Shown piece after piece: positions 11,862-35,428 of a DNA stretch of 64,000 nucleotides (its first letter is position 1; the number at the start of each line of letters is the position of its first letter). The translations under genes and the position numbers were made by a program. Below the pieces are notes generated by a model. The model had not been told where the DNA came from, did no database searches, and saw nothing but the letters and a program-made list of their open reading frames with translations. Origin of the DNA: Candidatus Moraniibacteriota bacterium (GTDB lineage Bacteria; Patescibacteriota; Minisyncoccia; Moranbacterales; UBA2206); assembly GCA_013334765.1 (NCBI GenBank), contig JAAXWW010000003.1, forward strand, positions 49,354 to 113,353, given 5' to 3'.

Positions 11862-11866
11862 ATAGC

Positions 11867-13957
11867 TTATATATTAAAGCTTTCAATTAAGGCTTGCACG
11901 TGTTTATAGAAATTCTCCGCATGTTTGAGCTCATATTCTGAATATTCTCCATGTGACGCGTGATTTCCAATTGCCAGATATGTTTTGTTTTCTTCCCACT
12001 GAACTTTGGAAAAAATATTCTCATTCTTCAGCTTATCATTAAGAATAGCAGCTTTTTCTTCCTTGGCATTTTCCTTCAGAATATTCATACCGCTTCTTTG
12101 CGCGATTTTTTGAATAGTTTTTTCGAGCACAATGCGCAGGATTCTCGCACCTTCGTCTTTCTCTTTTTCTTCAAAAATTTTGACTTTCGCCTTATCGAGA
12201 TCAGAAAAGATCGTATCAGCCTTTACTGAAACATTCATTTTGACCAGCTGCTTATATATTTCAAGGATTTTCTGAGGAATTTCCTCGATGTCAAAATCAT
12301 CGACATCATTGAAAAGACTCACATCAACTGTGCCATCCATCGAAAACATATATATTATTTTCTTGCCTTTGAGTTTTTTTATTTCTTTCAGAAAATCTTC
12401 AAAACTGTCGTCAAGAAAATTATAGTAAACGCACAGAAATTTATCTTTTTTATGAGATGAGAAAATCTTGTAATCCTCTTGTTTGGATTCCAGATTGAAT
12501 ATATTTTCTTTCACGCAAAGCATCTGTGTGCATTTTTGCGTGAGATCAACACGCACCTGATCTTTGCTCTTTGTTTTTTTAACCAAATCAGTGCGGAAAT
12601 ATTGCAAATTCCCGCCCAGCCCTTCCACTTTTTCACCGTTACCATTTTTGTTATACCCATTGATAACTTTTTGCAAACGAGGATATGTCACTTCTTCGCA
12701 AATACCATTTTCGTTGTTCGTACAAAGAATAAATTTTCTATTTCCTCCATCATCTTCATTTAATTTTAAAACTGCTTGCCCTGTAGTACCAGAACCAGCA
12801 AAAAAATCAAGAATTATAGCATTATCATTTTTTGAACAAACACGAATACAATCAACAACTGCATACAAGGATTTTGGAAATGAAAAACTGCCCGAATTTC
12901 CAATTATTTCGTCGAGAATTGAAGTTCCATGCTCACTTGCTGAATATCTAACATCATCCCAAAAACTTTTTGGCGTTTCACCTTCTAATCCTCCTTTAAA
13001 TCTAAAATATACCTGATACCCATGTTTAGTTTGTTTTACTGAAAGATCTCCATTTTTATATAATTTTTCAATATCATCTTTTCCTCTTCTCCATATTCTT
13101 TTTTGATTTTTCGTATCTATTGGCAAAATCTCAATTTCTAATTTTTTTAACGCACTAATTTCTCCTGTTTTTGGATTAAAATATATAGAATAGTATCTGT
13201 CATAAAAAGATCCGTCCTTTTTTATCGCAAGACTGTCCTGCCCCTCCTTTCTCAAATTACGTTCTTCAAACCAATTTCCTGAATCATCCTGATAATATTT
13301 GTGATTTTTATCCTTTGGATGGACAAAAAATGGAGAAACCTTCGTTTCTATGCTTTTTGCGAAAAAAATAGCATACTCATGTTGCAAAGCAACTTTCTTT
13401 TTGCTTTTTCTTCCTCCTGGATTGTTTCTAATTACAACAGTACCTAGATGATTATTTTCACCAAATATCTTATCTAATAACATCCATAGTGTTCGTAGTT
13501 CATAATCATCAATTGTTATGCAAATGATACCATCCTCTTTTAGAATATTTTTTGCAATATTTAATCGCTTTTCCATCATATTAAGCCACTTTGAATGCCT
13601 GTAACCATCATCCTCGCCTACAAATCTATTATTATATTTCCAGTCTTTTGCACCAGTGTTGTACGGCGGATCAATATAAATCACATCAATTTTTTCCTTG
13701 TGCGTATAATTCAAAACGGTGAGCGCATGATAGTTATCGCCTTCAATCAAAATATTGTCAGTCTCATCGCATGTTTTTATTTCTTTTCCCTTTACGTGCT
13801 TCAAAACCGGTAGATTATTTTCACAATCCAAAACAACCTGCTCCGGCTCACGTTCCGAATCCCAAACTAATCCATATTTTTTAGATGACAATTCTGCCTC
13901 CTGTTTTTCAACAAGCTTTAGAAGATCTTCTTTGGATAGATTTGAGTATTTATTCAT
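11867..13957 (-). CDS. mod: Type III restriction-modification Mod subunit (N6-adenine/N4-cytosine DNA methyltransferase)
   Basis: Motif IV VIYIDPPYNTG and motif I ILDFFAGSGTTGQA. 696 aa. Confidence 0.85.
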   Translation of the reverse strand: MNKYSNLSKEDLLKLVEKQEAELSSKKYGLVWDSEREPEQVVLDCENNLPVLKHVKGKEIKTCDETDNILIEGDNYHALTVLNYTHKEKIDVIYIDPPYNTGAKDWKYNNRFVGEDDGYRHSKWLNMMEKRLNIAKNILKEDGIICITIDDYELRTLWMLLDKIFGENNHLGTVVIRNNPGGRKSKKKVALQHEYAIFFAKSIETKVSPFFVHPKDKNHKYYQDDSGNWFEERNLRKEGQDSLAIKKDGSFYDRYYSIYFNPKTGEISALKKLEIEILPIDTKNQKRIWRRGKDDIEKLYKNGDLSVKQTKHGYQVYFRFKGGLEGETPKSFWDDVRYSASEHGTSILDEIIGNSGSFSFPKSLYAVVDCIRVCSKNDNAIILDFFAGSGTTGQAVLKLNEDDGGNRKFILCTNNENGICEEVTYPRLQKVINGYNKNGNGEKVEGLGGNLQYFRTDLVKKTKSKDQVRVDLTQKCTQMLCVKENIFNLESKQEDYKIFSSHKKDKFLCVYYNFLDDSFEDFLKEIKKLKGKKIIYMFSMDGTVDVSLFNDVDDFDIEEIPQKILEIYKQLVKMNVSVKADTIFSDLDKAKVKIFEEKEKDEGARILRIVLEKTIQKIAQRSGMNILKENAKEEKAAILNDKLKNENIFSKVQWEENKTYLAIGNHASHGEYSEYELKHAENFYKHVQALIESFNI

Positions 13958-13986
13958 AATATTGCAAACTTGGATAATTTCTATTT

Positions 13987-14316
13987 CTATTTTTTATTTT
14001 CTATATTTTTTAGCCTCATGTCTAAATTATCGATTCTTTTTGTAAATTTCTCATACCTCTCTGCATTATCCCTATAGTAGTCAAAAAGAAGAGGAATCAA
14101 TGCAAGAAAAAAAGCAACTATAATTATACCAGCAATCCCCATAATAAAATTTATCGCCTTATCTTGATTTTTTTCTGATCTCCTCAAGGATTTCTCTATA
14201 TCAAGCGCCTTAATTTCCAAAGCATCAAGCCTGGTAGAAGCGGGAACTGATGTTGCTTTCACAGAAACCTCACTAGACGTCGAACTTGTTGAAATTTTTT
14301 CTTTCAAATTAGACAT
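13987..14316 (-). CDS. small single-pass membrane protein with coiled-coil (cassette gene 4)
   Basis: 109 aa. Central TM helix (GIAGIIIVAFFLALIPLLF) flanked by charged helical segments. 8-nt overlap with the upstream ORF. Confidence 0.5.
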   Translation of the reverse strand: MSNLKEKISTSSTSSEVSVKATSVPASTRLDALEIKALDIEKSLRRSEKNQDKAINFIMGIAGIIIVAFFLALIPLLFDYYRDNAERYEKFTKRIDNLDMRLKNIENKK

Positions 14317-14731
14317 TATTTGCTTTTTCTAGAATCAAATAATTACTTTCGCTCAAAAGATGTTCTCCTGATTTAATTCTTATTAAATATCTCCCTTCGC
14401 TCGCAAATGGCAACCCAATAACATTGGCAACAAAATTTGCCCCTCCCCCATCCTCTTTTATTTCAATATTTCCACCTAATGAAGCAATTACCTGATTTTG
14501 AGGAGAAACAATCTCTATTTTTATATTGTAAAAATTTTTCTTTCCAATTAAGCCAATTGAAATTGCAAAAGCTGGCTGCATTGCTGGAAAATTTACAACA
14601 AATATTCTGTCAAAAATACCAATAATATTCAACTTGCCTTCTTGTGAAAAGAAAGCGTTCTCACTAATATGAACGAATTTTAATTCAATATTTGTCATAA
14701 TTTTTTTGAATTTTAAAGTTAATTTACCCAA
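14309..14731 (-). CDS. hypothetical beta-rich protein (cassette gene 3)
   Basis: 140 aa. No motif recognised. Overlaps neighbours by 8-13 nt, indicating translational coupling. Confidence 0.5.
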   Translation of the reverse strand: MGKLTLKFKKIMTNIELKFVHISENAFFSQEGKLNIIGIFDRIFVVNFPAMQPAFAISIGLIGKKNFYNIKIEIVSPQNQVIASLGGNIEIKEDGGGANFVANVIGLPFASEGRYLIRIKSGEHLLSESNYLILEKANNV

Positions 14732-15405
14732 AAGCTACTGCCGTTATCAAATCTATCCCTCTCTATGTTCAAAATTTCCGCAAAGGTACGCTTTGGTATC
14801 CATCTTTTATCTTTTTCTGCCCAATTTTTAAAGATAATTGTTCCCTTTTGATAACTAATGATATTAGAAATAACCATGCCAGCAAGCATAGAGCAAGTTC
14901 CAAAGTTTTTTACCCCCTCAAGATCGCACTGCTTCCTCAAGCCTTTATCATTAGTCAAAATTGCACAATCTGAATAATCTAACACTCCCGTTATCGTTAT
15001 TAAACTCTTATCTTCAATGGATAGATTACTTGTCCATTGGCATGAATTTTTCCAAAGCGTACCACCTCTAAGAGTGGACACCCCTTCTGTTTTAGAGTAA
15101 ATTACATTCACTGAAATGCTAGAGCCATAGAAACTATAGGAAAAATCACCATTAGCTGCCAAAAAAACAGTCCCACTCTTTCCTGAAATACAAGATGTAT
15201 TTGCTATAGACTCAACGAGTATATTTCGTTGATTATTATGTTCATAGGTAAATTCACATGAAACACACTCGGAGCTCGTAGCTGTTTTTAATCCAGCTTG
15301 CGCATAAAAAGCGTTTATTTTTTCTATTTGAATCTGATCTTCTTTTAAGGAATACCTTACTGGATCAATTCCTGATGTATCCCAAATTAAAATTTTGTTT
15401 TTCAT
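14719..15405 (-). CDS. hypothetical Cys-containing protein (cassette gene 2)
   Basis: Start moved to the internal Met (MKNKILIWD) preceded by GGTGG/AAGG. Only 4 nt after the stop of the protease gene. Confidence 0.5.
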   Translation of the reverse strand: MKNKILIWDTSGIDPVRYSLKEDQIQIEKINAFYAQAGLKTATSSECVSCEFTYEHNNQRNILVESIANTSCISGKSGTVFLAANGDFSYSFYGSSISVNVIYSKTEGVSTLRGGTLWKNSCQWTSNLSIEDKSLITITGVLDYSDCAILTNDKGLRKQCDLEGVKNFGTCSMLAGMVISNIISYQKGTIIFKNWAEKDKRWIPKRTFAEILNIERDRFDNGSSFWVN

Positions 15406-15409
15406 AACC

Positions 15410-16426
15410 TTATTTCCACCCCTGTCCAAGCACCCTCCACACAATCTGCTCCTGCGGGATATTAATAACACCCACCTGAGTTTGCTGTTGGACATTTTGC
15501 TGGACTTTTTTAAATTCCATATCGATCTCGAAATGATTACTAATTTCCGCGCTCTCAACATACGCGATCATATATTTATGTAACTCTCCACTTTTGAGTT
15601 CAATTTCAGGATTCCACATTTCAGTCATATGCATATCCCTGTTGTATCCATCATAAACCTCAGTCATCAAATCAGACATCTCCTTATCAGCATCCACGAC
15701 CGTTTTGATTCCCAAATCCTCTTTGGCTTCCTTGCGGCCGATATAGTATTGGTGAGAATATAGTTTTTCAGTCAGAAATTCGATAACCTTCTCAATTTCA
15801 TCCTCCTTAAGCGGTTGCTTATGGCTTTTGAGCAAACGCTTGGCCAGAATCTTGATCAGATTATGCGTGCGATTCACATTGCCGAGCGCTAATGGGTGAA
15901 TCGATGGGTTGCTTTCCACGAATTTGTTGAATATTTTAGTCAGTTCCTCATCGCTTTTGATGCCGAATTTATTCTTTGCCAAATCGAAATAACTCATGAC
16001 CTCTTCGACTGAAATTGGAATTCGGTTTTGTGGATTTTGCGGATCAACTGGATTGAAAACATTGGCGGTTGAAGGATCAATCGGAGAAAGTTCGGACATG
16101 TCACTCATCACAATTTCATCAGCACCAAGTGAAATCATAGTAGCCGCGCTATGGGCTTTGTATGGGATAATAACAGAAAAATGGTCGCAATACTCACGAA
16201 TCATCGAAACCAACCTCCATGGAACCATAGTATCTCCTCCCGCGCTATACAAAACAAGGTCGATTTTTTCTTGTTTGCCGATTTTGCGAAGATGGCTGCT
16301 GATGATCGGAATAATATCCATTGCCACACGCGCATTTACTGGACCTTGCCGATCGCTCGTGGCATAGGTAATAACCTTTGAACCACGCAACTGCTCGATT
16401 TTTTTTATTATTTCTTGTGTTTGCAT
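15410..16426 (-). CDS. ClpP/crotonase-fold serine protease of the SDH (serine dehydrogenase proteinase, S49-like) family (cassette gene 1)
   Basis: IDLVLYSAGGDTMVPWRLVSMIRE...IPYKAHSAATMISLGADEIVM matches the nucleophile and oxyanion regions of S49/SDH ClpP-class peptidases. 338 aa. Confidence 0.6.
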   Translation of the reverse strand: MQTQEIIKKIEQLRGSKVITYATSDRQGPVNARVAMDIIPIISSHLRKIGKQEKIDLVLYSAGGDTMVPWRLVSMIREYCDHFSVIIPYKAHSAATMISLGADEIVMSDMSELSPIDPSTANVFNPVDPQNPQNRIPISVEEVMSYFDLAKNKFGIKSDEELTKIFNKFVESNPSIHPLALGNVNRTHNLIKILAKRLLKSHKQPLKEDEIEKVIEFLTEKLYSHQYYIGRKEAKEDLGIKTVVDADKEMSDLMTEVYDGYNRDMHMTEMWNPEIELKSGELHKYMIAYVESAEISNHFEIDMEFKKVQQNVQQQTQVGVINIPQEQIVWRVLGQGWK

Positions 16427-17707: not shown

Positions 17708-18424
17708 CTTCTGTTTGAGTGCCAGGTAGTGTTGGCGCTTGGGTTCGCTGAAGCGTTCGATAGCATAGCGGAGGGCGGTGCGGGGCATCTTGGCGGCATG
17801 GGCGTCCAGGAAGGCGCATTCGATTTCTTCGCCGCACCGCTTGCCTACCTCGCGAAGCATCCAGCCGACCGCCTTGTGCATCAGGTCATGTTTGTCGCCG
17901 AGGAGCTTCTTGGCAAGCCTGAGAGTCCACTGGCTTTCGCCCTTCTTGATAAAATGGAAAGTCGCTAGGATCGAAATCCTCCGTTCCCAAAGCAGATCCG
18001 ATCCGGCGAGCGAAAGCAGGATCTTCTTGTCACGGTTCTCGAGATAGCTGCCAACAATCCTGTCAGCCGTCAGATCGACCAGGTCCCAACTGTTGATATG
18101 TTCCGTGTTGGCAAGATATGCATTGAAAATCCCTTCCTTTTTTTCCTCATCCCCTTTCTGGAACTGATCAACCATGACCAAAAGCGCGAAAAGGCGCTCT
18201 TCATGGAAGGCGGAATGAAGGAAGAAAAGGATGTCATCCATCTGGATGCCGCGGTATTTCGCGACCAGGGGGCGCGTGTCCGGAACGACGATGCCCAGGA
18301 ACTTGTCGCCCTCGCCGTATTGCCCTTTTCCAGTCTTGAAAAACCCAGCCAGAACCAGCGCTTTCTCCTTGTTCGCCAGAAGGCGCATCTCTTTTCGTAT
18401 TGCTGAAACTTTTTTGCTGTTCAT
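17702..18424 (-). CDS. DNA alkylation repair protein (AlkC/AlkD HEAT-repeat glycosylase family)
   Basis: 240 aa all-helical. N-terminal pattern ...IRKEMRLLANKEKALVLAGFFKTGKGQYGEGDKFLGI typical of the AlkD-like family. Confidence 0.65.
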   Translation of the reverse strand: MNSKKVSAIRKEMRLLANKEKALVLAGFFKTGKGQYGEGDKFLGIVVPDTRPLVAKYRGIQMDDILFFLHSAFHEERLFALLVMVDQFQKGDEEKKEGIFNAYLANTEHINSWDLVDLTADRIVGSYLENRDKKILLSLAGSDLLWERRISILATFHFIKKGESQWTLRLAKKLLGDKHDLMHKAVGWMLREVGKRCGEEIECAFLDAHAAKMPRTALRYAIERFSEPKRQHYLALKQKI

Positions 18425-18432
18425 GGGCGTAT

Positions 18433-20067
18433 TTATACCTTCAAATTCTTCCCCCGTTCCGCTTTGGCCGCGACCAGTTTTATCTTCTCGTAGCTTATGT
18501 TCTCCGGCAGGATATCCTTAATCGGTTTCAGCCTTTCGGCGCTTCCGACCCGATCGATTGCGGCTGCAATGTCCTCTTCCTCAGCTTCAGAAACGAACTT
18601 GCGGATATCCAAATCTTTTCCGGAAAGATGCCAATCCGCCAAATGGCTGATGATGGTCCGGTCGCTCAATCCCCGGATCTTCACCATCTGTTCCAGAGTG
18701 TATCCACGCTGATAGAGATCGCCTGTCGCCCGGACAGTGGCGCCGATCAGGTTCCTGGTTGCCCTTTTCTCCTTCAAGCGGCTCCTAAAATCGTTGCTGT
18801 CGTCTTTCTTTCTTTTCCAGCCGAGACACACGTCGCAGCCTTGGCAATTGTCGCCATGCGTCGGATATTCCGGATCGTCGAAATATTTGAGGATGTTCTT
18901 CCGGCGGCATTTGGCTGTTTCGACATAGCCGATCATCTTGTCGAGCCGGTCGTATTTTATGGAAATGAGGCAGCTTATCTCTTCGTCCGACTTGCCCTGA
19001 TCCCACATGGCTTGGCGGTCGTTACGGATGAAGAATTTGTGCATCGTGACATCACGCTTGCCATGAAGCAATATGCAATATGCTGTCTCCCCGTCCCGGC
19101 CGGCGCGTCCGGCTTCCTGATAGTATCCTTCCAGATTCTTGGGCATGCCGGCGTGGATGACGAACCTGACATCGGATTTGTCCACGCCCATCCCAAAAGC
19201 GATGGTCGCCACGATGACTTTGTAGTTGTCGTCCATGAAACCGTTCTGGATCTTCTCGCGTTCCGGCCCGCTCATGCCGGCATGATATGCGGCAGCCGGA
19301 ACATCGTTTTCTTTAAGGAAAAGCGCCATCTGATCAGCTTCTTTCCTTGTGAGGGTATATATGATCCCAACTCCCTCCATGGTGCCGACCAAACGCAGGA
19401 CTTCGGCATAGCGTTCGCGCGGCTTGAGATCCTTCTCCACAAAGAATTTCAGATTAGGACGGTTGAATCCGCGCACGAACACTTGGGGATCCTTGAGCGC
19501 CAACCTCACGGAAATATCGTCTTTCACTTCCGGCGTCGCCGTCGCGGTGAAAGCGGCCACTGCGGGACGGTTGCGAAGACGGCCGATGAAATCCTTGATT
19601 TCGAGATAGTCGGGACGGAAATCATGTCCCCAGGCGGAAACGCAGTGCGCCTCGTCGACTGCCAGAAGGAAAAAATCGATATCGGCGATGAGCGCTTGGA
19701 AGTTCCGGTTGGACAATCTTTCCGGAGCGACATAGAGCAGCTTGTATTTCCCGTTTCGGACTCCCTGGACGCGGAAATCGACCTCGGAAGGAGACAGCGA
19801 GCTGTTGATGAAAGTGGCCGGGATGCCGCGGGCGTTGAGCGCGTCGACTTGGTCTTTCATGAGCGCGATGAGCGGAGAAATGATAATCGAGGTTTTCTGA
19901 CTGAGAATGGCCGGCAGCTGATAGCACAAAGACTTCCCTCCGCCGGTCGGCATGAGAGCGACAACATCTTTCCCTGCCAGGATCGCCTCGACGATTTCGC
20001 GCTGTCCCGGACGGAACTGGGAAAAATTGAAATATCTTTCTAGGTATCCTTCAAGCATGTCTTTCAT
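18433..20067 (-). CDS. recQ: ATP-dependent DNA helicase RecQ
   Basis: RPGQREIVEAIL, MPTGGGKSLCYQLPA, DEAH, Zn-binding Cys cluster, and C-terminal HRDC-like region. 544 aa. Confidence 0.9.
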   Translation of the reverse strand: MKDMLEGYLERYFNFSQFRPGQREIVEAILAGKDVVALMPTGGGKSLCYQLPAILSQKTSIIISPLIALMKDQVDALNARGIPATFINSSLSPSEVDFRVQGVRNGKYKLLYVAPERLSNRNFQALIADIDFFLLAVDEAHCVSAWGHDFRPDYLEIKDFIGRLRNRPAVAAFTATATPEVKDDISVRLALKDPQVFVRGFNRPNLKFFVEKDLKPRERYAEVLRLVGTMEGVGIIYTLTRKEADQMALFLKENDVPAAAYHAGMSGPEREKIQNGFMDDNYKVIVATIAFGMGVDKSDVRFVIHAGMPKNLEGYYQEAGRAGRDGETAYCILLHGKRDVTMHKFFIRNDRQAMWDQGKSDEEISCLISIKYDRLDKMIGYVETAKCRRKNILKYFDDPEYPTHGDNCQGCDVCLGWKRKKDDSNDFRSRLKEKRATRNLIGATVRATGDLYQRGYTLEQMVKIRGLSDRTIISHLADWHLSGKDLDIRKFVSEAEEEDIAAAIDRVGSAERLKPIKDILPENISYEKIKLVAAKAERGKNLKV

Positions 20068-22789: not shown

Positions 22790-25700
22790 TTATCTCTTAC
22801 TCTTCTTGTAGTATACCACTATCGCGACCTGAACGATCAGGAAAGAATATATGGACATCACCAAGAGAATAATCGTTTTTATCATCCTCTCACTGCTTTC
22901 CATTCGGCAATTGCAGGGAGCCTTTGCTTTATCAGCACAATCCACCTGAACTCCGTTTGGTGCGGATTCCGCAGCATCTCCTTCAATTTTTCCCCCGTTG
23001 ATTCCCTGGGGTGTCAGTGTCGAGACATTTTCTTTTCCCACAACTGATATTCTCTTGATGATGCTCGTTCGGGATATGCTTTCTTCATCATCACTATCAT
23101 CATTTCCACTATCGCTCTCATCGCTTACTGAAAAATCCGTTTTTTTCTGCCCGCTGTCAGAATCAGGTTCAGCCGAATAGTCTTCCGCGCCGTCCCCGTC
23201 ATAGTCAGCTATGAGTTTTGTTATGCCGGATACGCCACTGCTCGGTATATCGAGATTGACCTTGGTGTCAGGCGAAACTGGAAGATCGGAAAAGACCGCC
23301 GCCGCCAAAATCTCGTCATTGCCAGAAGAAGACGGCTGCACTTCTTCAGCTTTGAGCGTATATGATCCGCTGTCATAGCCGTCCATTTCCAGCTTGATGT
23401 TTTCGCCGCTAGGAAATCCGACATATTTCCGCTCATCCAGCTCGATATAGTAGCTGTTCGGAATGCCTTCCTCGATGATTGTCGTTTCCTGCCCGTCAAC
23501 CGTGACGGTTTTCGGTCCGGTATGGTTGCCCTGGTCGTCATAGAGATGGATATTGAGCGGAGAATAGAGCGACATGCGGATACGCGACTTGGCTCCTTCA
23601 TAGTCTTTTGGGAGACTTTTATGGATGTACTCCGGCAGCGAGGCGTTCTCGCCCTTATTGGAAATTATCTTGGAGAGAAATTGCCTTATCGAATCAGTTT
23701 CAAAGAGATATGCATGATTCTTACTATCATTATCATCCTTATTGCTTCTATATAAATCAAACCAATACCTCTCCACATCATCCCCTTCCGGCATCATAAG
23801 GGCACTCGGCGAAGTGACTATTCCATCACCATCGACTGTTAAAACCGGATCGAATATATTGTCGTATTCTCCGGTTCCTGTGCATGACGGAACTTTCGAT
23901 CCAGGAACAGCATGGCAACGAGTCTTTTCCTTTTCTCCATATCTGACCCCTTTTATAGTATCCAGCCCCCAACCTGCAATCTGGATAGCCTTGGTGCCGG
24001 AAGGAGGTTTCCATGCATCCTCTTTTTCATGCATCTTCCGAGCCTCTTCCAGGATATTTCCATTCAGTACGGCAGGCGTCGAAGCATCGTTCATCACGGA
24101 GTCTTCCCTTTCATCCCCTTCTCCAGTCAGAAATTTCTTGAATTCGTCATAGCCCTCTATGCCTTCTCCGTAGTCGCTTTTGAAGCGGCCGGATGAGAAT
24201 GTCACTAAGGGATCGTGTGATTTATCGAGATATTCTTTGCTAGGCAGAAGCCCGTATGCTCCAGGAATAGTAATCGCCAATTTCATCGCTTCATAATCGC
24301 TTGTAAGAAACCCATCGAGAAGCCCTTCCTTGTAGCCGTAGAGCATGGAGAGGATTGCCTTTGGCGTCCCCATTTGCGGCGTTCCGACAAACACCACTTT
24401 ATCGACCTCTCCCGCTTTCCCCTCTTCTTCCAGCTTCATCATGATGGCCTTGGCAAGGAGCCCGCCATTGGAATGAGCGACTATGGTCACCTTGCCGTTC
24501 TTCGATGACGATGCCAGTTCATCAACCGTCGCGACTGGAAATTTCCTCTCGCCGCCAGGGTGCGGAGTTCCGTTCTCAACCACATCTTCGACGCTCTGGC
24601 GCCAGTCATAGGGAAAGGCTTCATAGCCACTGATAATTTCGGCACTTTTTTTCGATTCCAAATCATCTATGAATGACTTATAGAATTTCTGGGTTGTTTT
24701 CAGAAACGATATTTGATCAATAACGTCTTTCGTATAGACATCCTCCATGCTCTTGCCGTCTTTGAAAAGAAGCTGATCCATGTCATTGCTGAAAGGAGTC
24801 GGCGGCCATAGCTGGTCTTCTGAGCCAAGCAGATCATTTTTGTATAGGCTGCTACCTTCTATTCCTGGCAGGAAGAGGACGTTTGATGCGCAGTCAGCAC
24901 AAACGCTTTCGAAGCGATGATCGCTCCAGCCGTCCAAGGTATAGTCGCCGGAAATCTCTTCGCCTGACCCTGAAAGCCCGGCTCCGCTCGGTCCAGAGGC
25001 ATCGCCATACCAGTTGTTTTCCAGCCTTATTGCTTCTTTATCACGGACAAAGCCGTGCTCAGTATCTTTTCCTGAAAAGGATATCAACGCGGTGCCTTGG
25101 AGATTGCCTTCGAAATTGGAATTGGAAACCATAAGGCTGCTGTCTAGCGATTCCTCTTCGGATGAATGGTAATAATCAACTTCTATGTCCGCATAGGAAT
25201 TGTCCTTGAATGTCGAGTTGTCGATGTCGACTCTGCCGCTATAGAATGTGACGGCCGGATTGAATCTGAGTTCTTGGCTCGCATAGGCCGTGTTGAAGAT
25301 GTTCCGCCTTGCTTTATCGTTAATCCCAATACGCGGCGGACAGTCCGAAGTATCGTATTCCACATATGTCCCCATGTCCTCGAAACTGACGTGCTCTAAT
25401 ATTGATGGATCTTCATTTTCCTCTGGCGTGTCTGAAAATTCGATCATGCCGCCCTCATACATGAAGCATTTCGGATCGTATTGCTGGTCTTCTTCAGGAA
25501 TGGAGGATGGGTCGAAAGGCGGCTTTACGAAAACGATATTCTCTTTGGAAGTCCCTCTTGCATCGATCCTGCCATCGAACACATAGATATTCCCCATCCT
25601 TATGCGGGTCCCTTTTTCTATGGTCAGCGTCGCTCCTTCGATGATCTCGACATCAGTATTGGAAATATCCACCTCTCCGCTCCAGACGGTATCATGGTCG

Positions 25701-25837
25701 ATTTCCATCCGGTCGTCATAGCATGCGCGGGCTTGGTTCGTGCGATTGAAAACCGAAAGCAGCCCTTCCGGCGAAACCGGCAGGACGGTGAGAATGAAAA
25801 TGAGCAGCGCGCTTATGGCTTGGCTTATCCTTCGCAT
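22790..25837 (-). CDS. large cell-surface protein with alpha/beta-hydrolase (lipase/LCAT/PGAP1-like) domain, C-terminal TM anchor
   Basis: 1015 aa. Signal peptide. Nucleophile elbow KVTIVAHSNGGLLAKA (GxSxG). Asp/Ser-rich linker. C-terminal hydrophobic helix IKTIILLVMSIYSFLIVQVAIVVYY followed by KKSKR. Confidence 0.55.
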   Translation of the reverse strand: MRRISQAISALLIFILTVLPVSPEGLLSVFNRTNQARACYDDRMEIDHDTVWSGEVDISNTDVEIIEGATLTIEKGTRIRMGNIYVFDGRIDARGTSKENIVFVKPPFDPSSIPEEDQQYDPKCFMYEGGMIEFSDTPEENEDPSILEHVSFEDMGTYVEYDTSDCPPRIGINDKARRNIFNTAYASQELRFNPAVTFYSGRVDIDNSTFKDNSYADIEVDYYHSSEEESLDSSLMVSNSNFEGNLQGTALISFSGKDTEHGFVRDKEAIRLENNWYGDASGPSGAGLSGSGEEISGDYTLDGWSDHRFESVCADCASNVLFLPGIEGSSLYKNDLLGSEDQLWPPTPFSNDMDQLLFKDGKSMEDVYTKDVIDQISFLKTTQKFYKSFIDDLESKKSAEIISGYEAFPYDWRQSVEDVVENGTPHPGGERKFPVATVDELASSSKNGKVTIVAHSNGGLLAKAIMMKLEEEGKAGEVDKVVFVGTPQMGTPKAILSMLYGYKEGLLDGFLTSDYEAMKLAITIPGAYGLLPSKEYLDKSHDPLVTFSSGRFKSDYGEGIEGYDEFKKFLTGEGDEREDSVMNDASTPAVLNGNILEEARKMHEKEDAWKPPSGTKAIQIAGWGLDTIKGVRYGEKEKTRCHAVPGSKVPSCTGTGEYDNIFDPVLTVDGDGIVTSPSALMMPEGDDVERYWFDLYRSNKDDNDSKNHAYLFETDSIRQFLSKIISNKGENASLPEYIHKSLPKDYEGAKSRIRMSLYSPLNIHLYDDQGNHTGPKTVTVDGQETTIIEEGIPNSYYIELDERKYVGFPSGENIKLEMDGYDSGSYTLKAEEVQPSSSGNDEILAAAVFSDLPVSPDTKVNLDIPSSGVSGITKLIADYDGDGAEDYSAEPDSDSGQKKTDFSVSDESDSGNDDSDDEESISRTSIIKRISVVGKENVSTLTPQGINGGKIEGDAAESAPNGVQVDCADKAKAPCNCRMESSERMIKTIILLVMSIYSFLIVQVAIVVYYKKSKR

Positions 25838-25998: not shown

Positions 25999-28512
25999 CT
26001 ATTCTCCCAGCTGCCTGACCCAGTGCTGGAACTGGTCGCCTTTTTCTTCGAAATTCTTCCAGAGGCTATAGCTGGGCGAGGCGGTGGAAAGGAGGCAGGC
26101 ATCTCCGCTCGCGGTGTTGGCATAGGCGAAGGCTACAGCCTCCTGCATGTCTTTCGTTTCCAATATATTCAGCTCTTCTCGGGACGCGAAAATCCTTTTT
26201 CCGCTGTCGGGGAAAAGGACGATGTTTTTGATGCCGTTCTTCCTGATTTCCTTTTCCAGTTCCGAGAAATCATATCCGCGGTCTTCTCCGCCTAGGAAAA
26301 TAGTGCCGACGTGTGGGATGGTTTTGATTGCCATGATGGTTGATTCTGGAGTGGTCGATATGGCATCGTCATAGAACCGGATGCCTTTGAACTCTCCGAC
26401 CGGTTCGAGCCTATGAGCAAGAGGCTTGAATTTCTTGATTGCACGCATGATTACATCATCCGATATGCCAAATTGTTTTGCGGTTGCGATCGCTGCCCTG
26501 ATATTGTTTTTGTTGTGCTCGCCCAAGAGCGACGTTTCGATTCCGAAAAGAGAAATATTGGAAAAAGAAATTCCTTTCGCCGCGGTTTCACTTTCCCACG
26601 CTACAAGCCTTTCGTCTTTTCCGTTATAGATGAAAATATCTCCTGGTTTTTGGAAAGAAATGATATTCTTTTTGGCGGCATAATAATTATCCACTCCATC
26701 GTGATAGTTCATGTGTTCCGGGAAAAGATTGAGTGCCACAGCGATGCTTGGTGAATATTCGATGTCGTCCAATTGATAGCTTGAAAGTTCCAGCACGAAA
26801 ATCTCATCTGGATCAACAGGCACCATCAATGATTCAAGCATCGGTTTGCCGATATTGCCGAGCAGGCTGACTTTTTTGCCGGCCTCTTTGAGGATCGAAT
26901 ATATCAATGAGGATGTGGTGCTCTTTCCTTTGCTGCCTGTTATTCCGATCGTCGTATTCTTGACGTTGGAGAAAAACAGATTGGTCGCAGTCACGTATGG
27001 GATGGTCAGCAGTTCCTTTCTGATTCCTGGAGTCTTGATAGCCAGATCATAACCGGACTGTTTTTCGAGATAATCTTCGTCCAGTTCCTTGTCTGCGATG
27101 CCTATTTTGAGATCTGAAAAATATTTCCGGAGATATTTTTCGGTTACTTTCCCCTCTTTGCCATAGCCCAGAATCAAGACGTTTTTTATGCCGAGCAATC
27201 TGAATTTGGCGGGGAGAGTCGGAGCGTTGTTGGTTTTCATAACATCCCGGGTCAATTTCTCCGGGCTTTCTATTTTCGGCAGGAATTCTTTGACAATGAT
27301 GCTTTCCTTGAATTTCCTGCTCGCCAAACTCAGCGCCGCTCTCGATTCGTCGAAGGTGCCGACGCAGTCGAACGGTTTCATTTCCCCGAATCCGAGGATA
27401 TCGCCAAACATCGGGATCAGATTTTCATCCTCGAACATGTTTTTGCCGAAAATTTCCAGCAGCTCTTTCTTTGGCAAGAATGCCGAAAGAAGCGTGAAAA
27501 CGAAAGCGCACTTCGCGCACTCGCAGCACCAAAGCGACGGCTGCCTTTCCTTATGGACTTTGAAGCTCCGGTTGCAGCTTGAGAAATATGGGAAATATTT
27601 TTTGTGATGAGCGAACATCTCGGCGATCCTGATTTCATAGAAAGGCCGCGGCAGCGAGAAATATGTGATGCCGGAAGAGAGGCGCTGCCTGGCATAGTCC
27701 TGGAAAAGCTTCTCGAATTCCATGGATTTGCTCCATTGATGGTTCACTTCTTCGCCGAGATACGCGGCATTGCCGAAATTGCTGCTGAATTCGTTTCCGA
27801 CAGCGACATACGAGAAGTCATATATGGCAGCGGCGAGGTAGCCGAGAAACGCGAAGATGGCGGAAACCGGGACATGGCCGTTGTATGATCCCTCGTGAGG
27901 CGCGAATATCTTCTCGTCCAGATAGCGCCTGATCTTCAGGGACGGAACGCCCATCTCTTTGACGACAGCATCCGAGATCGAGGAATCCTTTTGGGTTTCG
28001 ATGAGAAGCGCCGTGACTGAGTCGCCGTTTTTCTTGAGCAGCTCGCCGGCAACGACGGAATCTTTCCCGCCGCCTATGCCGAGCAGTATCCGGTTTTTCC
28101 TTTTCAACGGATAGGCTTCGGTTTTCAGGTTTTCATCACAGGGGAAATCGATCAGGTTCCTGGAGTCGATCCGGTTCTGATAGAAAAATTCGCCCAGGCC
28201 TTTTCGATATATGGTGTTCCAGAAATCCGCTTGGGCTTTCGAGATTTTCCTGGATAGGACCATCTTCGGCGGACAATACAGCTTGTAGTAGCTGATGCCG
28301 AGCATCAGATGCACGTCTTGAAGGATATTCTCTAGGAGTCCGGGCGGAACCGTGTCGAACTCCAAGCCTTCAGGAAAAGCTATGGTCTCCCTGAAAGAAA
28401 GCGCGGGGCTGTTGGCGAATCCTATTTCATAGTCGAAAACGGCCTTCTTCTCCTGAGGCTTCATTTCGAATGAGACGAACGTGAATTTTTCGGCTTTCGG
28501 CTGGGTCGGCAT
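25999..28512 (-). CDS. murD: fusion protein: N-terminal PP-loop-like domain of unknown function (~420 aa) plus complete UDP-MurNAc-L-Ala--D-Glu ligase MurD (~420 aa)
   Basis: C-terminal half has all MurD hallmarks: KNVLILGYGKEG, IGITGSKGKSTT, ELSSYQL, NLFPEHMNYHDG, GEHNKNNIRAAIATA, HRLE, FYDDAISTTPEST, SPSYSLWKNFEEKGDQF. N-terminal half carries GIGGGKDSVVAGELL (SGGxDS-like) and a Cys cluster CCECAKC. Single continuous 837-aa frame. Confidence 0.75.
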   Translation of the reverse strand: MPTQPKAEKFTFVSFEMKPQEKKAVFDYEIGFANSPALSFRETIAFPEGLEFDTVPPGLLENILQDVHLMLGISYYKLYCPPKMVLSRKISKAQADFWNTIYRKGLGEFFYQNRIDSRNLIDFPCDENLKTEAYPLKRKNRILLGIGGGKDSVVAGELLKKNGDSVTALLIETQKDSSISDAVVKEMGVPSLKIRRYLDEKIFAPHEGSYNGHVPVSAIFAFLGYLAAAIYDFSYVAVGNEFSSNFGNAAYLGEEVNHQWSKSMEFEKLFQDYARQRLSSGITYFSLPRPFYEIRIAEMFAHHKKYFPYFSSCNRSFKVHKERQPSLWCCECAKCAFVFTLLSAFLPKKELLEIFGKNMFEDENLIPMFGDILGFGEMKPFDCVGTFDESRAALSLASRKFKESIIVKEFLPKIESPEKLTRDVMKTNNAPTLPAKFRLLGIKNVLILGYGKEGKVTEKYLRKYFSDLKIGIADKELDEDYLEKQSGYDLAIKTPGIRKELLTIPYVTATNLFFSNVKNTTIGITGSKGKSTTSSLIYSILKEAGKKVSLLGNIGKPMLESLMVPVDPDEIFVLELSSYQLDDIEYSPSIAVALNLFPEHMNYHDGVDNYYAAKKNIISFQKPGDIFIYNGKDERLVAWESETAAKGISFSNISLFGIETSLLGEHNKNNIRAAIATAKQFGISDDVIMRAIKKFKPLAHRLEPVGEFKGIRFYDDAISTTPESTIMAIKTIPHVGTIFLGGEDRGYDFSELEKEIRKNGIKNIVLFPDSGKRIFASREELNILETKDMQEAVAFAYANTASGDACLLSTASPSYSLWKNFEEKGDQFQHWVRQLGE

Positions 28513-28588: not shown

Positions 28589-29797
28589 TTATGGATAGAA
28601 GCTTTTTATGAGCTTGTTGTATTCCCTGACTTTCTGGTTATATGAATTTATCTTAGCATTATATGCCGAAACTTCCTTGCTATATGCATCCGCCTGGTCG
28701 TTATATTCCTTCGCCAGGCTGTTATACTTCTCATAATCCTTGTTTTTCTTGTATTTGTCCAGGCTGGTTTTCATGCTTTCCAGCTCTTCCTTGTCGGAGG
28801 CTATCCGCTGTTTTTCCAAAGCGAGCTGCTTGTCCATGCTTTGGATGTCGCTTTTCAGCTGAACGATCTTTTTTTCGGTCTTGAGCGTGGCGACGATTCC
28901 GCCATATGATTTGCCGGCTGTCTTGGCTAGGATGTTCGGATCGCCAAGGGCGGTCTGATTCCCGGCTTCCGCGCCGAAATATGGGATATCCTGGTTTGCT
29001 AACGGCTTGTTGCTGAGCGGGTCAAGATTCGGGACCAGCCCGATGATGTTTTCCGGCGCGGTCGTTTCGGCATAGCAGTATCCGCTGCCGTAGGTGGAAT
29101 ATTCATCGGGACACTGGATACCGATGGCCATGTGATGCGCATCGGGATATTCGAACAGCGCGACGCCATATCCCGCCTGCTTCAGAAGAAGATAGGCCAG
29201 GAAGCTCTTGTCCGAGCAGATGCCTTTTTTGTCAAAAAGGGTTTCGTATGGATAGCGCGGCAGATGGATTCCGTCCTGGTTTCCATAGCCGTCCGACAGA
29301 AGCTCTTTGGCTCCGGCGTCGTCATATGGAAGCGCTTGGACAAAAGCCAGGATGAGCTCAGCTGACTGGTCATCAGTCAGCTTGCTTTTCTGCGCCTGGG
29401 CGCGGATGGCATCGGCAAGCTCCGTTATGAATCTGTCATTCGGCAGGCCAGTGAGGAACATGCCAGCATATTGCTCTTCCCAATCGGTCGGGAGCGTTCC
29501 TTGATATTGGTATTGGCGCGGCAGGTTGTAATAGTAGTCGTAGAGGGATTGGTATAGGGTCAGATCTATGGAATATGACTGATTGCGATATTTCCAATCG
29601 AACGATTTTTCGGTGGGATCAGTGAGTTCGACGGTTTTATTTTCGACAACGGAAGAACGTTTTTTGAGCAAGGGAATATTAGTGATGCTATCAGAAAGGC
29701 GTTCTTTTATGTTCGGAGAAAAAACGATAGCAATGATTGCGATAGTAATCGAGATCCTTAATATTATTCTGAAAAATTTCCTGATGAGGATAGCCAT
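28589..29797 (-). CDS. membrane-anchored transglutaminase-like (papain-fold Cys-His-Asp) protein with C-terminal coiled-coil
   Basis: N-terminal TM. DKKGICSDKSFLAYLLLKQAGY core Cys motif. Later His (HHMAIG) and Asp. Last ~110 aa Lys/Glu-rich coiled-coil. Confidence 0.5.
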   Translation of the reverse strand: MAILIRKFFRIILRISITIAIIAIVFSPNIKERLSDSITNIPLLKKRSSVVENKTVELTDPTEKSFDWKYRNQSYSIDLTLYQSLYDYYYNLPRQYQYQGTLPTDWEEQYAGMFLTGLPNDRFITELADAIRAQAQKSKLTDDQSAELILAFVQALPYDDAGAKELLSDGYGNQDGIHLPRYPYETLFDKKGICSDKSFLAYLLLKQAGYGVALFEYPDAHHMAIGIQCPDEYSTYGSGYCYAETTAPENIIGLVPNLDPLSNKPLANQDIPYFGAEAGNQTALGDPNILAKTAGKSYGGIVATLKTEKKIVQLKSDIQSMDKQLALEKQRIASDKEELESMKTSLDKYKKNKDYEKYNSLAKEYNDQADAYSKEVSAYNAKINSYNQKVREYNKLIKSFYP

Positions 29798-32926: not shown

Positions 32927-35428
32927 TTAGAAATAGCCCCATACTTTATTAATGGAAAGATTCATTGAAATCAAGCTGTTTTCCAAAAACTGCGTTGCCC
33001 AATGTTTTTGATCATGACAATCGGTGAAACTGTATTGATTGCCTTCTGACATAATATTTCCATGAGCATGGATAAGATTGCCTATGTTTTCTGCTGTGCA
33101 CTCGTTCGGTTTTATGGATGTTCCATAGTTCAAAAGAGTAATCCTCCTTTTCTGTTGGTCTAAATTCATTGGGGAAATCTTTCCAGCAATTTCCAGAGTT
33201 TCAGAATCATCATTTTCGCTATCTGCATAGCTGTTGTTATCCTCTTCCTTCTTTTCCAGTTCTGGACCTTGTGCTTCTTCTTGATTATTTGTCACTTCAT
33301 CTTGCGCGACTGTTGGTTCGCTTCTTGGGTTTTCTGCCTCCGAAGCAGCCGTGTCATCAGCATCGTTCCCTGTTTTTATCCAATTCCACTGCCCGTTGAG
33401 CTTTTGATAAATCTCGCCTTTTTCAATATTGTCTTTGGCATATGAAATCTTGGCAGCCGCTTTGCCGCTCGGATATCTGAGTTCCAGATTTCCAGCTTTG
33501 TTGCCTAGTGAAAAAAGAGTATATTCCCGGGTCATCTTTTTCGTTTTCCCGGCATCGATTTCGAAATCGGAAAGGATGACATGATTAAGGAGAACGTTTT
33601 GCCCTGTCACCATCTTCCAGCCTACAAGATTCACTTTCTTCTTGGAATTGTTTTTTATTTCGATCCATTCCCCTCCTTCATCATCTTCAAGCGGATTTGG
33701 TGAAAGCCCGACTATCTCAAGCTTGAACGACGGATATTTCTTGACCTCGATTTTCATTTTTTTGGTCGTTTTTTCAATTCCGTTATCAACGGAAAATGTT
33801 ACGTCATATTTACCCTTCTTCAAATAGGTATGGTTGACCTCTTGAAGATAGCTTCTTTTTCCATCGCCGAAATCCCAAACGTATTTGAGTTCATCTTTGT
33901 GTTTGTCCCTTACTTCCGCTGAAAATAAAATAGGGAGACCAAGATAGGCATCTTTTATTTTTCCGATCTTTATTTTTGGCGCCGGATCGAACTTGTTTTT
34001 CTTTCCAGGAGTTTTCGAACTGCTCCATTTCCAATCATCGCCATCGAAACCCAAGGAAATATCCTTCTTGGCGCTCGTATAGTTCACTGAGGAAATCGTG
34101 TTGCCGTCTGGATCCATGAAGTATATCGTGTCGGAAGTTTTGAGAGCAAAACTGAAAAGTTTGCGGTAAACTGTCAGGTATCCGCCAGATTTCAAAACAT
34201 ATCCCTCTGGAAAAACGAATTTGGTCGTCTTGGCGTTATTCTTGAGCATCCAGTCTTTGAGGTTTATTTCAAAATCTTCTCCGTTATATATCTCGATATA
34301 CGAATCTTTGTTCTTTTCCCCTTTCGGATATGGCAACAGCTCATTAAGGCGGATGTCGTAGTCGCTGGATCCGGATGTTCCGGATTTTTCATCTTCCGAT
34401 TCGGTTTCATCGAATTTGTTATTTTCTCCGGGAGTAAGAATAGACGTCCAAACCCAAGCGCTGCCATCGAAACTGAATGAGAAGTTTTTATCCGCCCCGG
34501 TATACGAGGCTTGATCGATTTCCTTGTCTTGAGAGTCCAGAAGATGAACTGTTTGAGGCGATGAGTGATTCAAGCTGAAATTCCTTGTGAGTGCAAGCAA
34601 GTCACCAGGCTCGATTATTGTTCCAGCAGGAAAGATGTATTTGTGAATCCCGTTAGTTATTTTCCAATCTGAAATATCCATACATGCATCTCCGAAATTT
34701 CCAATTTCAATATATTGATTATCGCTCGATTCGGCATATGGAAAAATCTCATTCAATTTCACATTTTCAGAAGAAGTGGCACACTCGCTCAAATCGCCTC
34801 CCGGATCATCTCCATCACCTGCTTCATCACCACCTCCTTCCTTAACGCTGCTGGTATTTCTTGGCAAAGGCGAATCGTTCAGTAAAAAATCTGCCGAGTT
34901 GTCGTCACTGTCTTCAAAATCAATCCTTTCGATGCTTTGCTCTGCCGACGGTTTTGGGGCAGGAAATTCCTCAGCAAAAAGATATATTCCTGCACCATAT
35001 GCGACGCGGTCAACTATGGAAGTCCCGGAAACGCTATCATCACTTAGATATGATTGATTGTTCACCAAGAAAACGGTCCCGCCCGTACTGGACAATGACT
35101 GGCTCCAAGACATATCAAGCGGCACTGATCCGCTATATTCTGAAGAATTTCCGATCAGGAAATATCCGTGTGGTGGAATCTTATTTCCGGAAACGAAGTT
35201 CTTCCTGGAAAAAGATGCAGCGCTTCCTCCTCGATATTGAACCGACCAACTCTCGATACTAACAGCTGAATCTGTCGGGTTGTATAGCTCGATGAAATAT
35301 GCCGAGCCAGTCTTGATTTGGTTTATGATGACATGTTCACTATCGGCATTGCCAACCTCAAGAAAACTGAAAAATCCAAAGAGTGTGAAAAACGCGAAAA
35401 CGAAACCACCGATTATTTTTCTTTTCAT
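32927..35428 (-). CDS. secreted protein with four lamin-tail domains (LTD) and one PKD domain
   Basis: Signal peptide. LTD signatures AYFIELYNPTDSAVSIESWSVQY, NQYIEIGNFGDACMDISDWKI, SYIEIYNGEDFEINLKDWML and GEWIEIKNNSKKKVNLVGWKM. PKD motif WDFGDGKRSYLQEVNHTYLKKGKYDVTFSV. Confidence 0.65.
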   Translation of the reverse strand: MKRKIIGGFVFAFFTLFGFFSFLEVGNADSEHVIINQIKTGSAYFIELYNPTDSAVSIESWSVQYRGGSAASFSRKNFVSGNKIPPHGYFLIGNSSEYSGSVPLDMSWSQSLSSTGGTVFLVNNQSYLSDDSVSGTSIVDRVAYGAGIYLFAEEFPAPKPSAEQSIERIDFEDSDDNSADFLLNDSPLPRNTSSVKEGGGDEAGDGDDPGGDLSECATSSENVKLNEIFPYAESSDNQYIEIGNFGDACMDISDWKITNGIHKYIFPAGTIIEPGDLLALTRNFSLNHSSPQTVHLLDSQDKEIDQASYTGADKNFSFSFDGSAWVWTSILTPGENNKFDETESEDEKSGTSGSSDYDIRLNELLPYPKGEKNKDSYIEIYNGEDFEINLKDWMLKNNAKTTKFVFPEGYVLKSGGYLTVYRKLFSFALKTSDTIYFMDPDGNTISSVNYTSAKKDISLGFDGDDWKWSSSKTPGKKNKFDPAPKIKIGKIKDAYLGLPILFSAEVRDKHKDELKYVWDFGDGKRSYLQEVNHTYLKKGKYDVTFSVDNGIEKTTKKMKIEVKKYPSFKLEIVGLSPNPLEDDEGGEWIEIKNNSKKKVNLVGWKMVTGQNVLLNHVILSDFEIDAGKTKKMTREYTLFSLGNKAGNLELRYPSGKAAAKISYAKDNIEKGEIYQKLNGQWNWIKTGNDADDTAASEAENPRSEPTVAQDEVTNNQEEAQGPELEKKEEDNNSYADSENDDSETLEIAGKISPMNLDQQKRRITLLNYGTSIKPNECTAENIGNLIHAHGNIMSEGNQYSFTDCHDQKHWATQFLENSLISMNLSINKVWGYF

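Follow-up and report, generated by a model that had tools for sequence, protein, structure and literature searches.

A predicted MurL-MurD2 fusion protein for the supply of peptidoglycan D-glutamate in Candidatus Moraniibacteriota

The analysed DNA, hereafter called the window, is a 64-kb stretch of contig JAAXWW010000003.1 from a Candidatus Moraniibacteriota bacterium, and the gene considered here is one uninterrupted open reading frame (ORF) of 837 amino acids (25999..28512, reverse strand) with an ATG start, a TAG stop (25999-26001) and no internal stop codon, its coordinates in the ORF list having been confirmed by translation. Judged by the homology of its two parts, the encoded protein is very probably a fusion of MurL and MurD2, which would first add L-Glu and then epimerise it to D-Glu. 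The N-terminal MurL half corresponds to 27238..28512 and the C-terminal MurD-type ligase half to 26002..27183; these and all other parts of the gene given below are on the reverse strand. A first-pass annotation of the same DNA had put forward such a fusion, and the proposal is now backed by a MurL profile match, a PP-loop fold and L-Glu-type MurD2 residues in the ligase half. The G+C content of the gene (0.47-0.48) is close to that of most of the window.

Both component enzymes are known from Xanthomonas oryzae, as MurL (XOO_1319) and MurD2 (XOO_1320), and validated orthologs exist in Micromonospora and Salinispora (Feng et al. 2017, via PMC5808125 and PMC8788868); the tag XOO_1320 given for MurL in the first-pass annotation reflects a swap of the two. 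In 2017 the pathway was described as confined to a few genera, and on that account it has been promoted as a narrow-spectrum antibiotic target (PMC8788868). As for MurL itself, the reviews state that it 'lacks known conserved domains' and that its mechanism is unknown (PMC5808125, PMC8788868). The present analysis itself shows that each half has known orthologs, and it gives their signature residues, the PP-loop fold, the recurrence of the fusion and the gene context; both reactions, the formation of AMP and the one-way direction come from published work on the enzymes of Xanthomonas and actinobacteria.

The MurL half and its PP-loop fold

Residues 7-417 gave a whole-model match to NF041275, the MurL family of NCBIfam (model positions 7-419 of 447; E=1.9e-101, 339.8 bits), which identifies as a MurL homolog the half in which no other recognisable identity had been seen beyond two motifs. 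In an alignment of 81 MurL domains, 50 positions reach a conservation of 95% or more, and all 50 are identical in the window protein as well as in 13 Xanthomonadales sequences. They include G148, G149, K150, D151 and S152 of the PP-loop, H213, E241, N257-H258-Q259, K262, S312-C313-N314, W328-C329, C332, K334-C335, K379-P380 and C383-V384-G385. The two motifs quoted earlier are indeed present. The first, GIGGGKDS (residues 145-152; 28057..28080), is a variant of SGGxDS that aligns with the SGGKDS of TtuA, and is predicted from its sequence to bind the pyrophosphate of ATP. The second, WCCECAKC (residues 328-335), forms part of a four-cysteine cluster, C313...C329-x2-C332-x2-C335 (27508..27579), to which the window protein adds C330. 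The last of the conserved groups listed lies in a KPFDCVG motif (residues 379-385; 27358..27378).

With the PP-loop, the four cysteines and the other family-invariant residues intact, and conserved over hundreds of homologs, it is highly improbable that the MurL domain is inactive or purely structural, the ligase adding L-Glu and the stem peptide keeping it; nothing direct was found in favour of this possibility.

The AlphaFold2 model of the MurL half, for which 74 diverse MurL homologs were aligned, has a mean predicted local distance difference test score (pLDDT) of 96.4 and a predicted template modelling score (pTM) of 0.94. In it, a strand (E139-145) followed by a helix (H150-161) flanks the GGGKDS PP-loop. 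Compared with the Protein Data Bank (PDB) by Foldseek, the model gave 19 matches at E<=1e-3, all of them PP-loop ATP pyrophosphatases, including TtuA (E=7e-5), the QueC-like Cap9 (template modelling (TM) score of 0.71 on the target), QueC (TM 0.65), MJ0690, argininosuccinate synthase (ArgG) and TrmU of the MnmA family, with MnmA, LarE, NAD synthetase (NadE) and GMP synthetase (GuaA) falling just under the threshold. The PP-loop fold that the first-pass annotation had read from the motif is therefore also what structure prediction returns. No MurL structure was present among the PDB entries compared.

Sequence comparisons lead to the same superfamily. The MurL family profile reached PP-loop enzymes only, through the GGGKDS/SGGKDS region, with TtuA at E=1.4e-5 and MnmA, NadE, GuaA and QueC as further matches. 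A single-sequence search of the PDB with the MurL half gave a marginal match to TtuA (E=0.17), and Pfam gave sub-threshold matches to tRNA_Me_trans and NAD_synthase at residues 140-192. The model thus places the MurL half in the PP-loop ATP pyrophosphatase superfamily, with a predicted QueC-like fold.

The Foldseek matches take in the PP-loop core only, a QueC/TtuA-like and putatively adenylating domain of residues ~135-345 (27478..28110). The preceding N-terminal beta/alpha subdomain (residues 1-130; 28123..28512) consists, in the secondary structure of the models, of three long strands followed by helices; it matched no solved fold in the PDB with Foldseek, and we infer that it binds the substrate. 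Catalytic roles may be ascribed to H213, H258 and K262, and C383 might serve as an acid/base residue for inversion at C-alpha. The cysteine cluster is presumably a structural or metal (Zn or Fe-S) site, the metal option being suggested by analogy with the metal sites of QueC and TtuA.

The ligase half and its glutamate site

The first-pass annotation had called the C-terminal half a complete MurD, and this description stands. Residues 446-833 matched TIGR01087 (murD, NCBIfam) over model positions 3-440 of 441, with 263.6 bits for a cutoff of 211.95, and a Pfam search of the 837-residue protein found Mur_ligase_M and Mur_ligase_C in this half. It superposes on closed, ligand-bound E. coli MurD with a TM score of 0.80 and a root-mean-square deviation of ~3.4 Å. 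The catalytic residues K115, N138, E157, H183, K198, T321 and S415 (E. coli numbering, which in the literature fits the Met-less sequence, as was checked before alignment) are all kept, and the first six are invariant across 120 fused homologs; the K115 equivalent lies in the ATP P-loop GITGSKGKSTT (residues 523-533; 26914..26946).

The choice between the glutamate enantiomers has been traced to a few residues. D182, K348, A414 and L416 of E. coli MurD correspond to E197, R358, P433 and F435 of X. oryzae MurD2; an E197D/R358K double mutant of MurD2 switched completely to D-Glu, and K319T makes E. coli MurD accept L-Glu (PMC8788868). Six positions were therefore read, namely D182, K319, K348, A414, S415 and L416 of E. 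coli MurD. The window protein has E599, I718, R745, P813, S814 and Y815, in the segments NLFPEHM (26710..26730, where H600 is the H183 equivalent), YDDAISTTP (26347..26373), GGEDRGYDF (26266..26292) and STASPSYSLW (26059..26088). As positive controls, the MurD2 proteins of Dyella, Rhodanobacter, Frateuria and Lysobacterales gave E, I, R, P, S and F, which reproduces the published signature. As for the negative controls, the MurD proteins of E. coli and P. aeruginosa (8DP2) both gave D, K, K, A, S and L, and that of S. agalactiae (3LK7) T, K, R, A, S and W.

The window protein thus has Glu and Arg where X. oryzae MurD2 has E197 and R358, and Pro and an aromatic residue where it has P433 and F435, with Tyr for Phe, and there is no Lys at the E. 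coli K319 position. Among the 120 fused homologs, the same positions hold Glu in 106 and Asp in 14, Ile in 113, Arg in all 120, Pro in all 120, and Tyr in 118 or Phe in two. None of the canonical D-Glu-site residues D182, K319, K348 and A414 was found in the ligase half of the window protein, and since E, I, R and P stand in their place, this half should not be filed as a D-glutamate ligase. It bears the L-Glu (MurD2) signature, from which L-Glu specificity is predicted.

A side observation concerns a minority of loci with Asp at the D182 position and with Arg, Ile and Pro kept elsewhere (L013, L023, L030, L031, L040, L041, L044, L048, L049 and L068 among the 80 loci described below). The single change E197D shifted the stereospecificity of the Xanthomonas MurD2, which is of relevance for such Asp-bearing, MurL-linked ligases.

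The first-pass annotation had also raised a different function, in which an ordinary MurD adds D-Glu and the PP-loop domain amidates its alpha-carboxylate to iso-glutamine, in the manner of MurT/GatD. The fold matches include the adenylate-forming amidotransferases AsnB, NadE, GuaA and QueC, the NCBI pipeline names the protein 'D-glutamate ligase' and the TIGR01087 cutoff is passed. The N-terminal domain is, however, a full-length homolog of a characterised epimerase, orthologous to it and with every family-invariant residue kept, the D-Glu-site residues have given way to L-Glu-type ones, and neither a glutaminase, a GatD-like domain nor a MurT-specific family was found in the protein or its neighbours. 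Amidation was rejected on these grounds and is considered very unlikely.

Fusion, distribution and gene context

More than 120 full-length homologs (811-885 amino acids, 56-80% identity) with the same architecture were retrieved by a word-indexed search, and all those named are from the Candidate Phyla Radiation (CPR, or Patescibacteria): Moranbacteria, Uhrbacteria, Parcubacteria, Paceibacterota and 'Patescibacteria group'. In a scan of species-representative genomes, at least 598 loci were confirmed, of which the best 80 were used for the analysis of context and for the tree; both halves lie in one stop-free frame in 24 of these 80. The two modules meet at residues 426-443, KTNNAPTLPAKFRLLGIK (27184..27237), a junction whose sequence is conserved among the fused homologs and differs from the N-terminus of unfused MurD2. 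The model of the full-length protein has a mean pLDDT of 91.1 and a pTM of 0.88, and since residues 420-450 around the junction reach 93-96, an ordered connection between the modules is predicted and not a flexible tether. No PDB entry spanned both halves in a structure search with this model.

In several unfused CPR relatives (L021, L023, L025, L026, L027 and L029), the stop codon of murL and the start codon of murD2 overlap as ATGA at the place of this junction, which implies translational coupling of the two genes. This arrangement is likely the precursor state of the fusion, as a small indel at the overlap would suffice to create it. On a neighbour-joining tree of MurL domains, built without support values, the window protein falls within one large clade of fused forms only. 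Two small fused groups, Falkowbacteria L040 and Peribacteria L035 with L041, fall outside this clade, which hints at more than one fusion event; a single origin tentatively appears unlikely.

The ATGA overlap also means that a single-base error could join two separate genes, and the source is a metagenome-assembled genome (MAG), so that a frameshift or assembly artefact, which the first-pass annotation had named as a concern, had to be considered. Against it, the same fusion recurs in more than 120 homologs whose assemblies come independently from many studies, the fused forms make up a coherent clade on the MurL tree, and the junction peptide is conserved, distinct from the unfused MurD2 N-terminus and confidently modelled. 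An artefact was thus rejected, its probability being close to nil, and the single frame is taken as real.

Concerning the MurL family as a whole, an exhaustive HMMER search over cluster representatives at 50% identity with the MurL half gave 2619 representatives at E<=1e-3 and 1183 at E<=1e-30. Among the best 150 matches, about 21 are proteins of 795-914 amino acids with an N-terminal MurL, the rest being mostly standalone proteins of ~450 amino acids, such as a Roizmanbacteria protein whose UniRef name is already that of the epimerase. The closest relatives of the window protein are in their majority from CPR/Patescibacteria. In CPR, the best 80 loci come from Moranii-, Uhr-, Staskawicz-, Peregrini-/Peri-, Roizman-, Levyi-, Woese-, Falkow-, Taylor- and Gracilibacteria and from Microgenomates; outside it, they come from Xanthomonadales (Dyella, Rhodanobacter, Frateuria and Pinirhizobacter, with 36-38% identity) and from Myxococcota and Thermoanaerobaculia MAGs. 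Some CPR-like loci carry titles of unrelated taxa, namely L023 (Weeksellaceae MAG), L074 (Holdemanella biformis bin), L007, L022 and L026 ('Gammaproteobacteria' MAGs) and L009, L013, L016 and L024 ('Saccharibacteria' MAGs). Mis-binning or mislabelling of MAG contigs probably accounts for these titles, rather than a true presence in the taxa named.

A MurD homolog follows murL on the same strand in all 76 of the best 80 loci that extend far enough. In the non-fused loci, its start mostly falls within about -26 to +56 nt of the murL stop, and only four loci have it farther off, at +105 to +1304 nt. Clustering of the flanking ORFs returned three conserved neighbours, confirmed as MraY, FtsW and MurG, at least one of which flanks murL-murD2 in 18 loci, eight of these fused. 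The order (mraY) - [murL-murD2] - ftsW - (murG), found in 16 of the 18, corresponds to the canonical murD slot of the division and cell wall (dcw) cluster; in the other two (L008 and L016), ftsW/murG stand upstream of the unit. No further murD was found in the dcw clusters of the 16 related genomes. This placement argues that the murL-murD2 unit performs the housekeeping MurD step. A different neighbour, a gene for a bifunctional aspartate kinase/diaminopimelate decarboxylase, was found at 13 loci, all but one unfused; in Xanthomonadales it lies just upstream of murL-murD2 (L057, L065, L071 and others), unlike the dcw placement in CPR.

The window gene itself sits outside any dcw cluster, between a 1015-residue protein with an LCAT-like alpha/beta-hydrolase core (22790-25837, reverse strand) and a 402-residue protein with a weak transglutaminase-like match and a lysine/glutamate-rich C-terminus (28589-29797, reverse strand), with a zinc ABC transporter and MltG further along; neither of the two adjacent genes has an evident tie to mur function. 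Such a location would suit a paralog working beside canonical murI and murD in a side pathway, for instance for another envelope polymer or peptide or for recycling. As the unit occupies the murD slot, with no other murD, in the 16 related clusters, and as both the catalytic and the UDP-MurNAc-L-Ala-binding residues are conserved, a paralog of this kind is judged improbable, though somewhat less so than amidation.

Several other features were noted elsewhere in the window. A low-GC island at 9492-16426 (0.33-0.37 vs. about 0.45-0.5 around it) holds a type III restriction-modification-like pair, consisting of an N6/N4 DNA methylase (11867-13957) and a ResIII helicase subunit (9492-11861), together with an SDH-family Clp-fold serine protease (15410-16426) and unannotated ORFs, and is probably a horizontally acquired defence island. 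A 1791-residue protein (45262-50637, reverse strand) combines collagen triple-helix repeats with an intramolecular Peptidase_S74 chaperone domain of the endosialidase/tail-fibre type and an H-type lectin domain, and resembles a tail fibre of a phage or an adhesin of the cell surface. An 833-residue protein (32927-35428, reverse strand), probably located at the surface, carries four lamin-tail domains together with a PKD domain. A 443-residue protein (52520-53851, reverse strand) is an unusual fusion of two antibiotic-modifying-type domains, a GNAT acetyltransferase resembling AAC(6') (residues ~118-268) and a lincosamide-nucleotidyltransferase-like domain (residues ~280-441; Lnu(D), E=3e-27). 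A 283-residue ORF (43277-44128, reverse strand) covers only the C-terminal part of the monomeric [FeFe] hydrogenase (TIGR04105, positions 218-460 of 462) and could be a truncated hydrogenase or an H-cluster domain alone. Finally, a 547-residue ORF (18400-20043, forward strand) is antisense to, and almost coextensive with, recQ (18433-20067, reverse strand), and is most likely a shadow ORF and not a gene.

Proposed pathway and comparison with known systems

In the pathway proposed for the fused MurL-MurD2 protein, the three-domain MurD2 module would convert ATP to ADP and inorganic phosphate, form an acyl-phosphate on the L-Ala carboxylate and add L-Glu, the choice of enantiomer being set by Glu599 and Arg745, with Ile718, Pro813 and Tyr815 likewise of the MurD2 type. 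The PP-loop module of MurL would then spend a second ATP on adenylating the terminal L-Glu at its alpha-carboxylate, with release of AMP and pyrophosphate (PPi). Adenylation would acidify the C-alpha proton, the centre would be inverted and the adenylate hydrolysed, making the formation of the D-Glu product irreversible. MurL uses one ATP and releases AMP, and its authors proposed alpha-carboxylate adenylation (PMC8788868); the PP-loop fold and motif fit this release of AMP, and we infer the same mechanism here. The L-Glu intermediate might be handed over (channelled) from one module to the other. As to its origin, the fused gene would derive from a translationally coupled murL-murD2 pair with the ATGA overlap, by loss of the stop codon.

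Several points weigh against a fused MurL-MurD2. The MurL score of 339.8 bits is below the NF041275 equivalog cutoff of 700, in a model named for Xanthomonadales; the protein is therefore to be seen as a divergent member of the MurL family and not as an automatic equivalog, and this is also why NCBI names the MurD half only. The Xanthomonadales MurL domains are only 36-38% identical to it. In 14 of the 120 fused homologs, Asp and not Glu stands at the D182 position, so that the L-Glu signature is not absolute, even if the window protein has Glu. The detachment of the window gene from the dcw cluster, described above, counts here as well. A search of the window ORFs of at least 150 amino acids for murI, a D-amino-acid transaminase or a second Mur ligase came back empty, which would fit the pathway but covers only 64 kb. 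The ATP-dependent, one-way L-to-D epimerisation is known only for the Xanthomonas and actinobacterial enzymes, none of them from CPR. Moreover, murI is not missing from every CPR lineage, since a glutamate racemase (MurI) of Saccharibacteria is active, going by the title of a 2024 paper cited in PMC11974145.

The databases, in which the family makes up at least 1183 clusters at 50% identity and occurs in 598 or more species-level genomes, contradict the narrow taxonomic range that the reviews give for MurL/MurD2, and this suggests that a 'rare' alternative pathway to D-Glu is widespread in a very large bacterial branch. A broader proposal, offered tentatively and with more doubt than confidence, is that MurL-MurD2 and not MurI could be the route that chiefly provides D-Glu for peptidoglycan in a large part of CPR; that the fused form might hand the L-Glu dipeptide from the ligase to a QueC-like, metal-bearing PP-loop site, where adenylation would permit a C383-assisted (or oxazolone-type) inversion; and that the proteobacterial and actinobacterial pathways may be offshoots of a larger, mostly CPR-borne family.

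The major clade with both enzymes in one chain offers a natural single-chain system for structural work on the epimerase, and the PP-loop/QueC-like assignment gives MurL a mechanistic frame and a short list of conserved residues for mutagenesis. Names such as 'D-glutamate ligase' probably give the wrong stereochemistry of the substrate and omit half of the function, and this misnaming would distort metabolic reconstructions of cell-wall synthesis in CPR. The databases already contain a 100% identical protein, named 'MAG: MurD [Candidatus Moranbacteria bacterium]' and encoded on a contig of 120,883 bp, and homologs carry Pfam assignments (PF26298/PF26299), a few JGI or UniRef entries of the family being labelled as epimerase. 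The literature search led only to reviews from the Dairi laboratory and returned no fused architecture, no occurrence in CPR and no PP-loop assignment of MurL. The earlier claim of an undescribed architecture thus holds for the literature searched, where no description was found, but not for the databases, where such proteins are plentiful. The component enzymes and their pairing were already known from the Dairi laboratory and the sequences were already public; what is new is the recognition of the identity and the spread of the fused proteins.

Compared with the MurL/MurD2 pair of X. oryzae, the window protein has both catalytic modules in the same order as the genes, murL then murD2, and shares the E, R, P and aromatic residues of MurD2 and the GGGKDS, four-cysteine and C383 invariants of MurL. 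The X. oryzae system consists of two proteins, whereas the window encodes a single polypeptide of 837 amino acids, with Tyr for F435. Its host belongs to CPR/Patescibacteria, outside the taxa listed in the MurL/MurD2 reviews, and its identity to Xanthomonadales MurL domains is 36-38%.

With the canonical MurD of E. coli, P. aeruginosa and S. agalactiae (1UAG/2JFG, 8DP2 and 3LK7), the ligase half shares the three-domain fold (TM 0.80), the ATP P-loop, the lysine equivalent to carbamylated K198, H183 and the product-binding S415 and F422. It differs at the glutamate site (D182 to E, K319 to I, K348 to R, A414 to P and L416 to Y), and the window protein has an additional N-terminal module of 440 amino acids.

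QueC, the QueC-like Cap9 and the TtuA/TtcA-type enzymes are the best structural matches to the MurL core; they have PP-loop folds, adenylate their substrate and release AMP and PPi. The CxxCxxC-type cysteine cluster of MurL presumably resembles their metal sites. Past the PP-loop, however, there is no detectable sequence similarity, and MurL has extra N- and C-terminal subdomains; its reaction is the epimerisation of a UDP-muramyl dipeptide, and not an amidation or a thiolation.

Finally, the bifunctional MurE/MurF (NF008896) and MurC/Ddl (NF011171) proteins, both of which appeared as weak NCBIfam matches of the window protein, are precedents for consecutive cytoplasmic steps of peptidoglycan synthesis in one chain. 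Each of them joins two ligases, whereas the window protein would join a ligase to a PP-loop epimerase.

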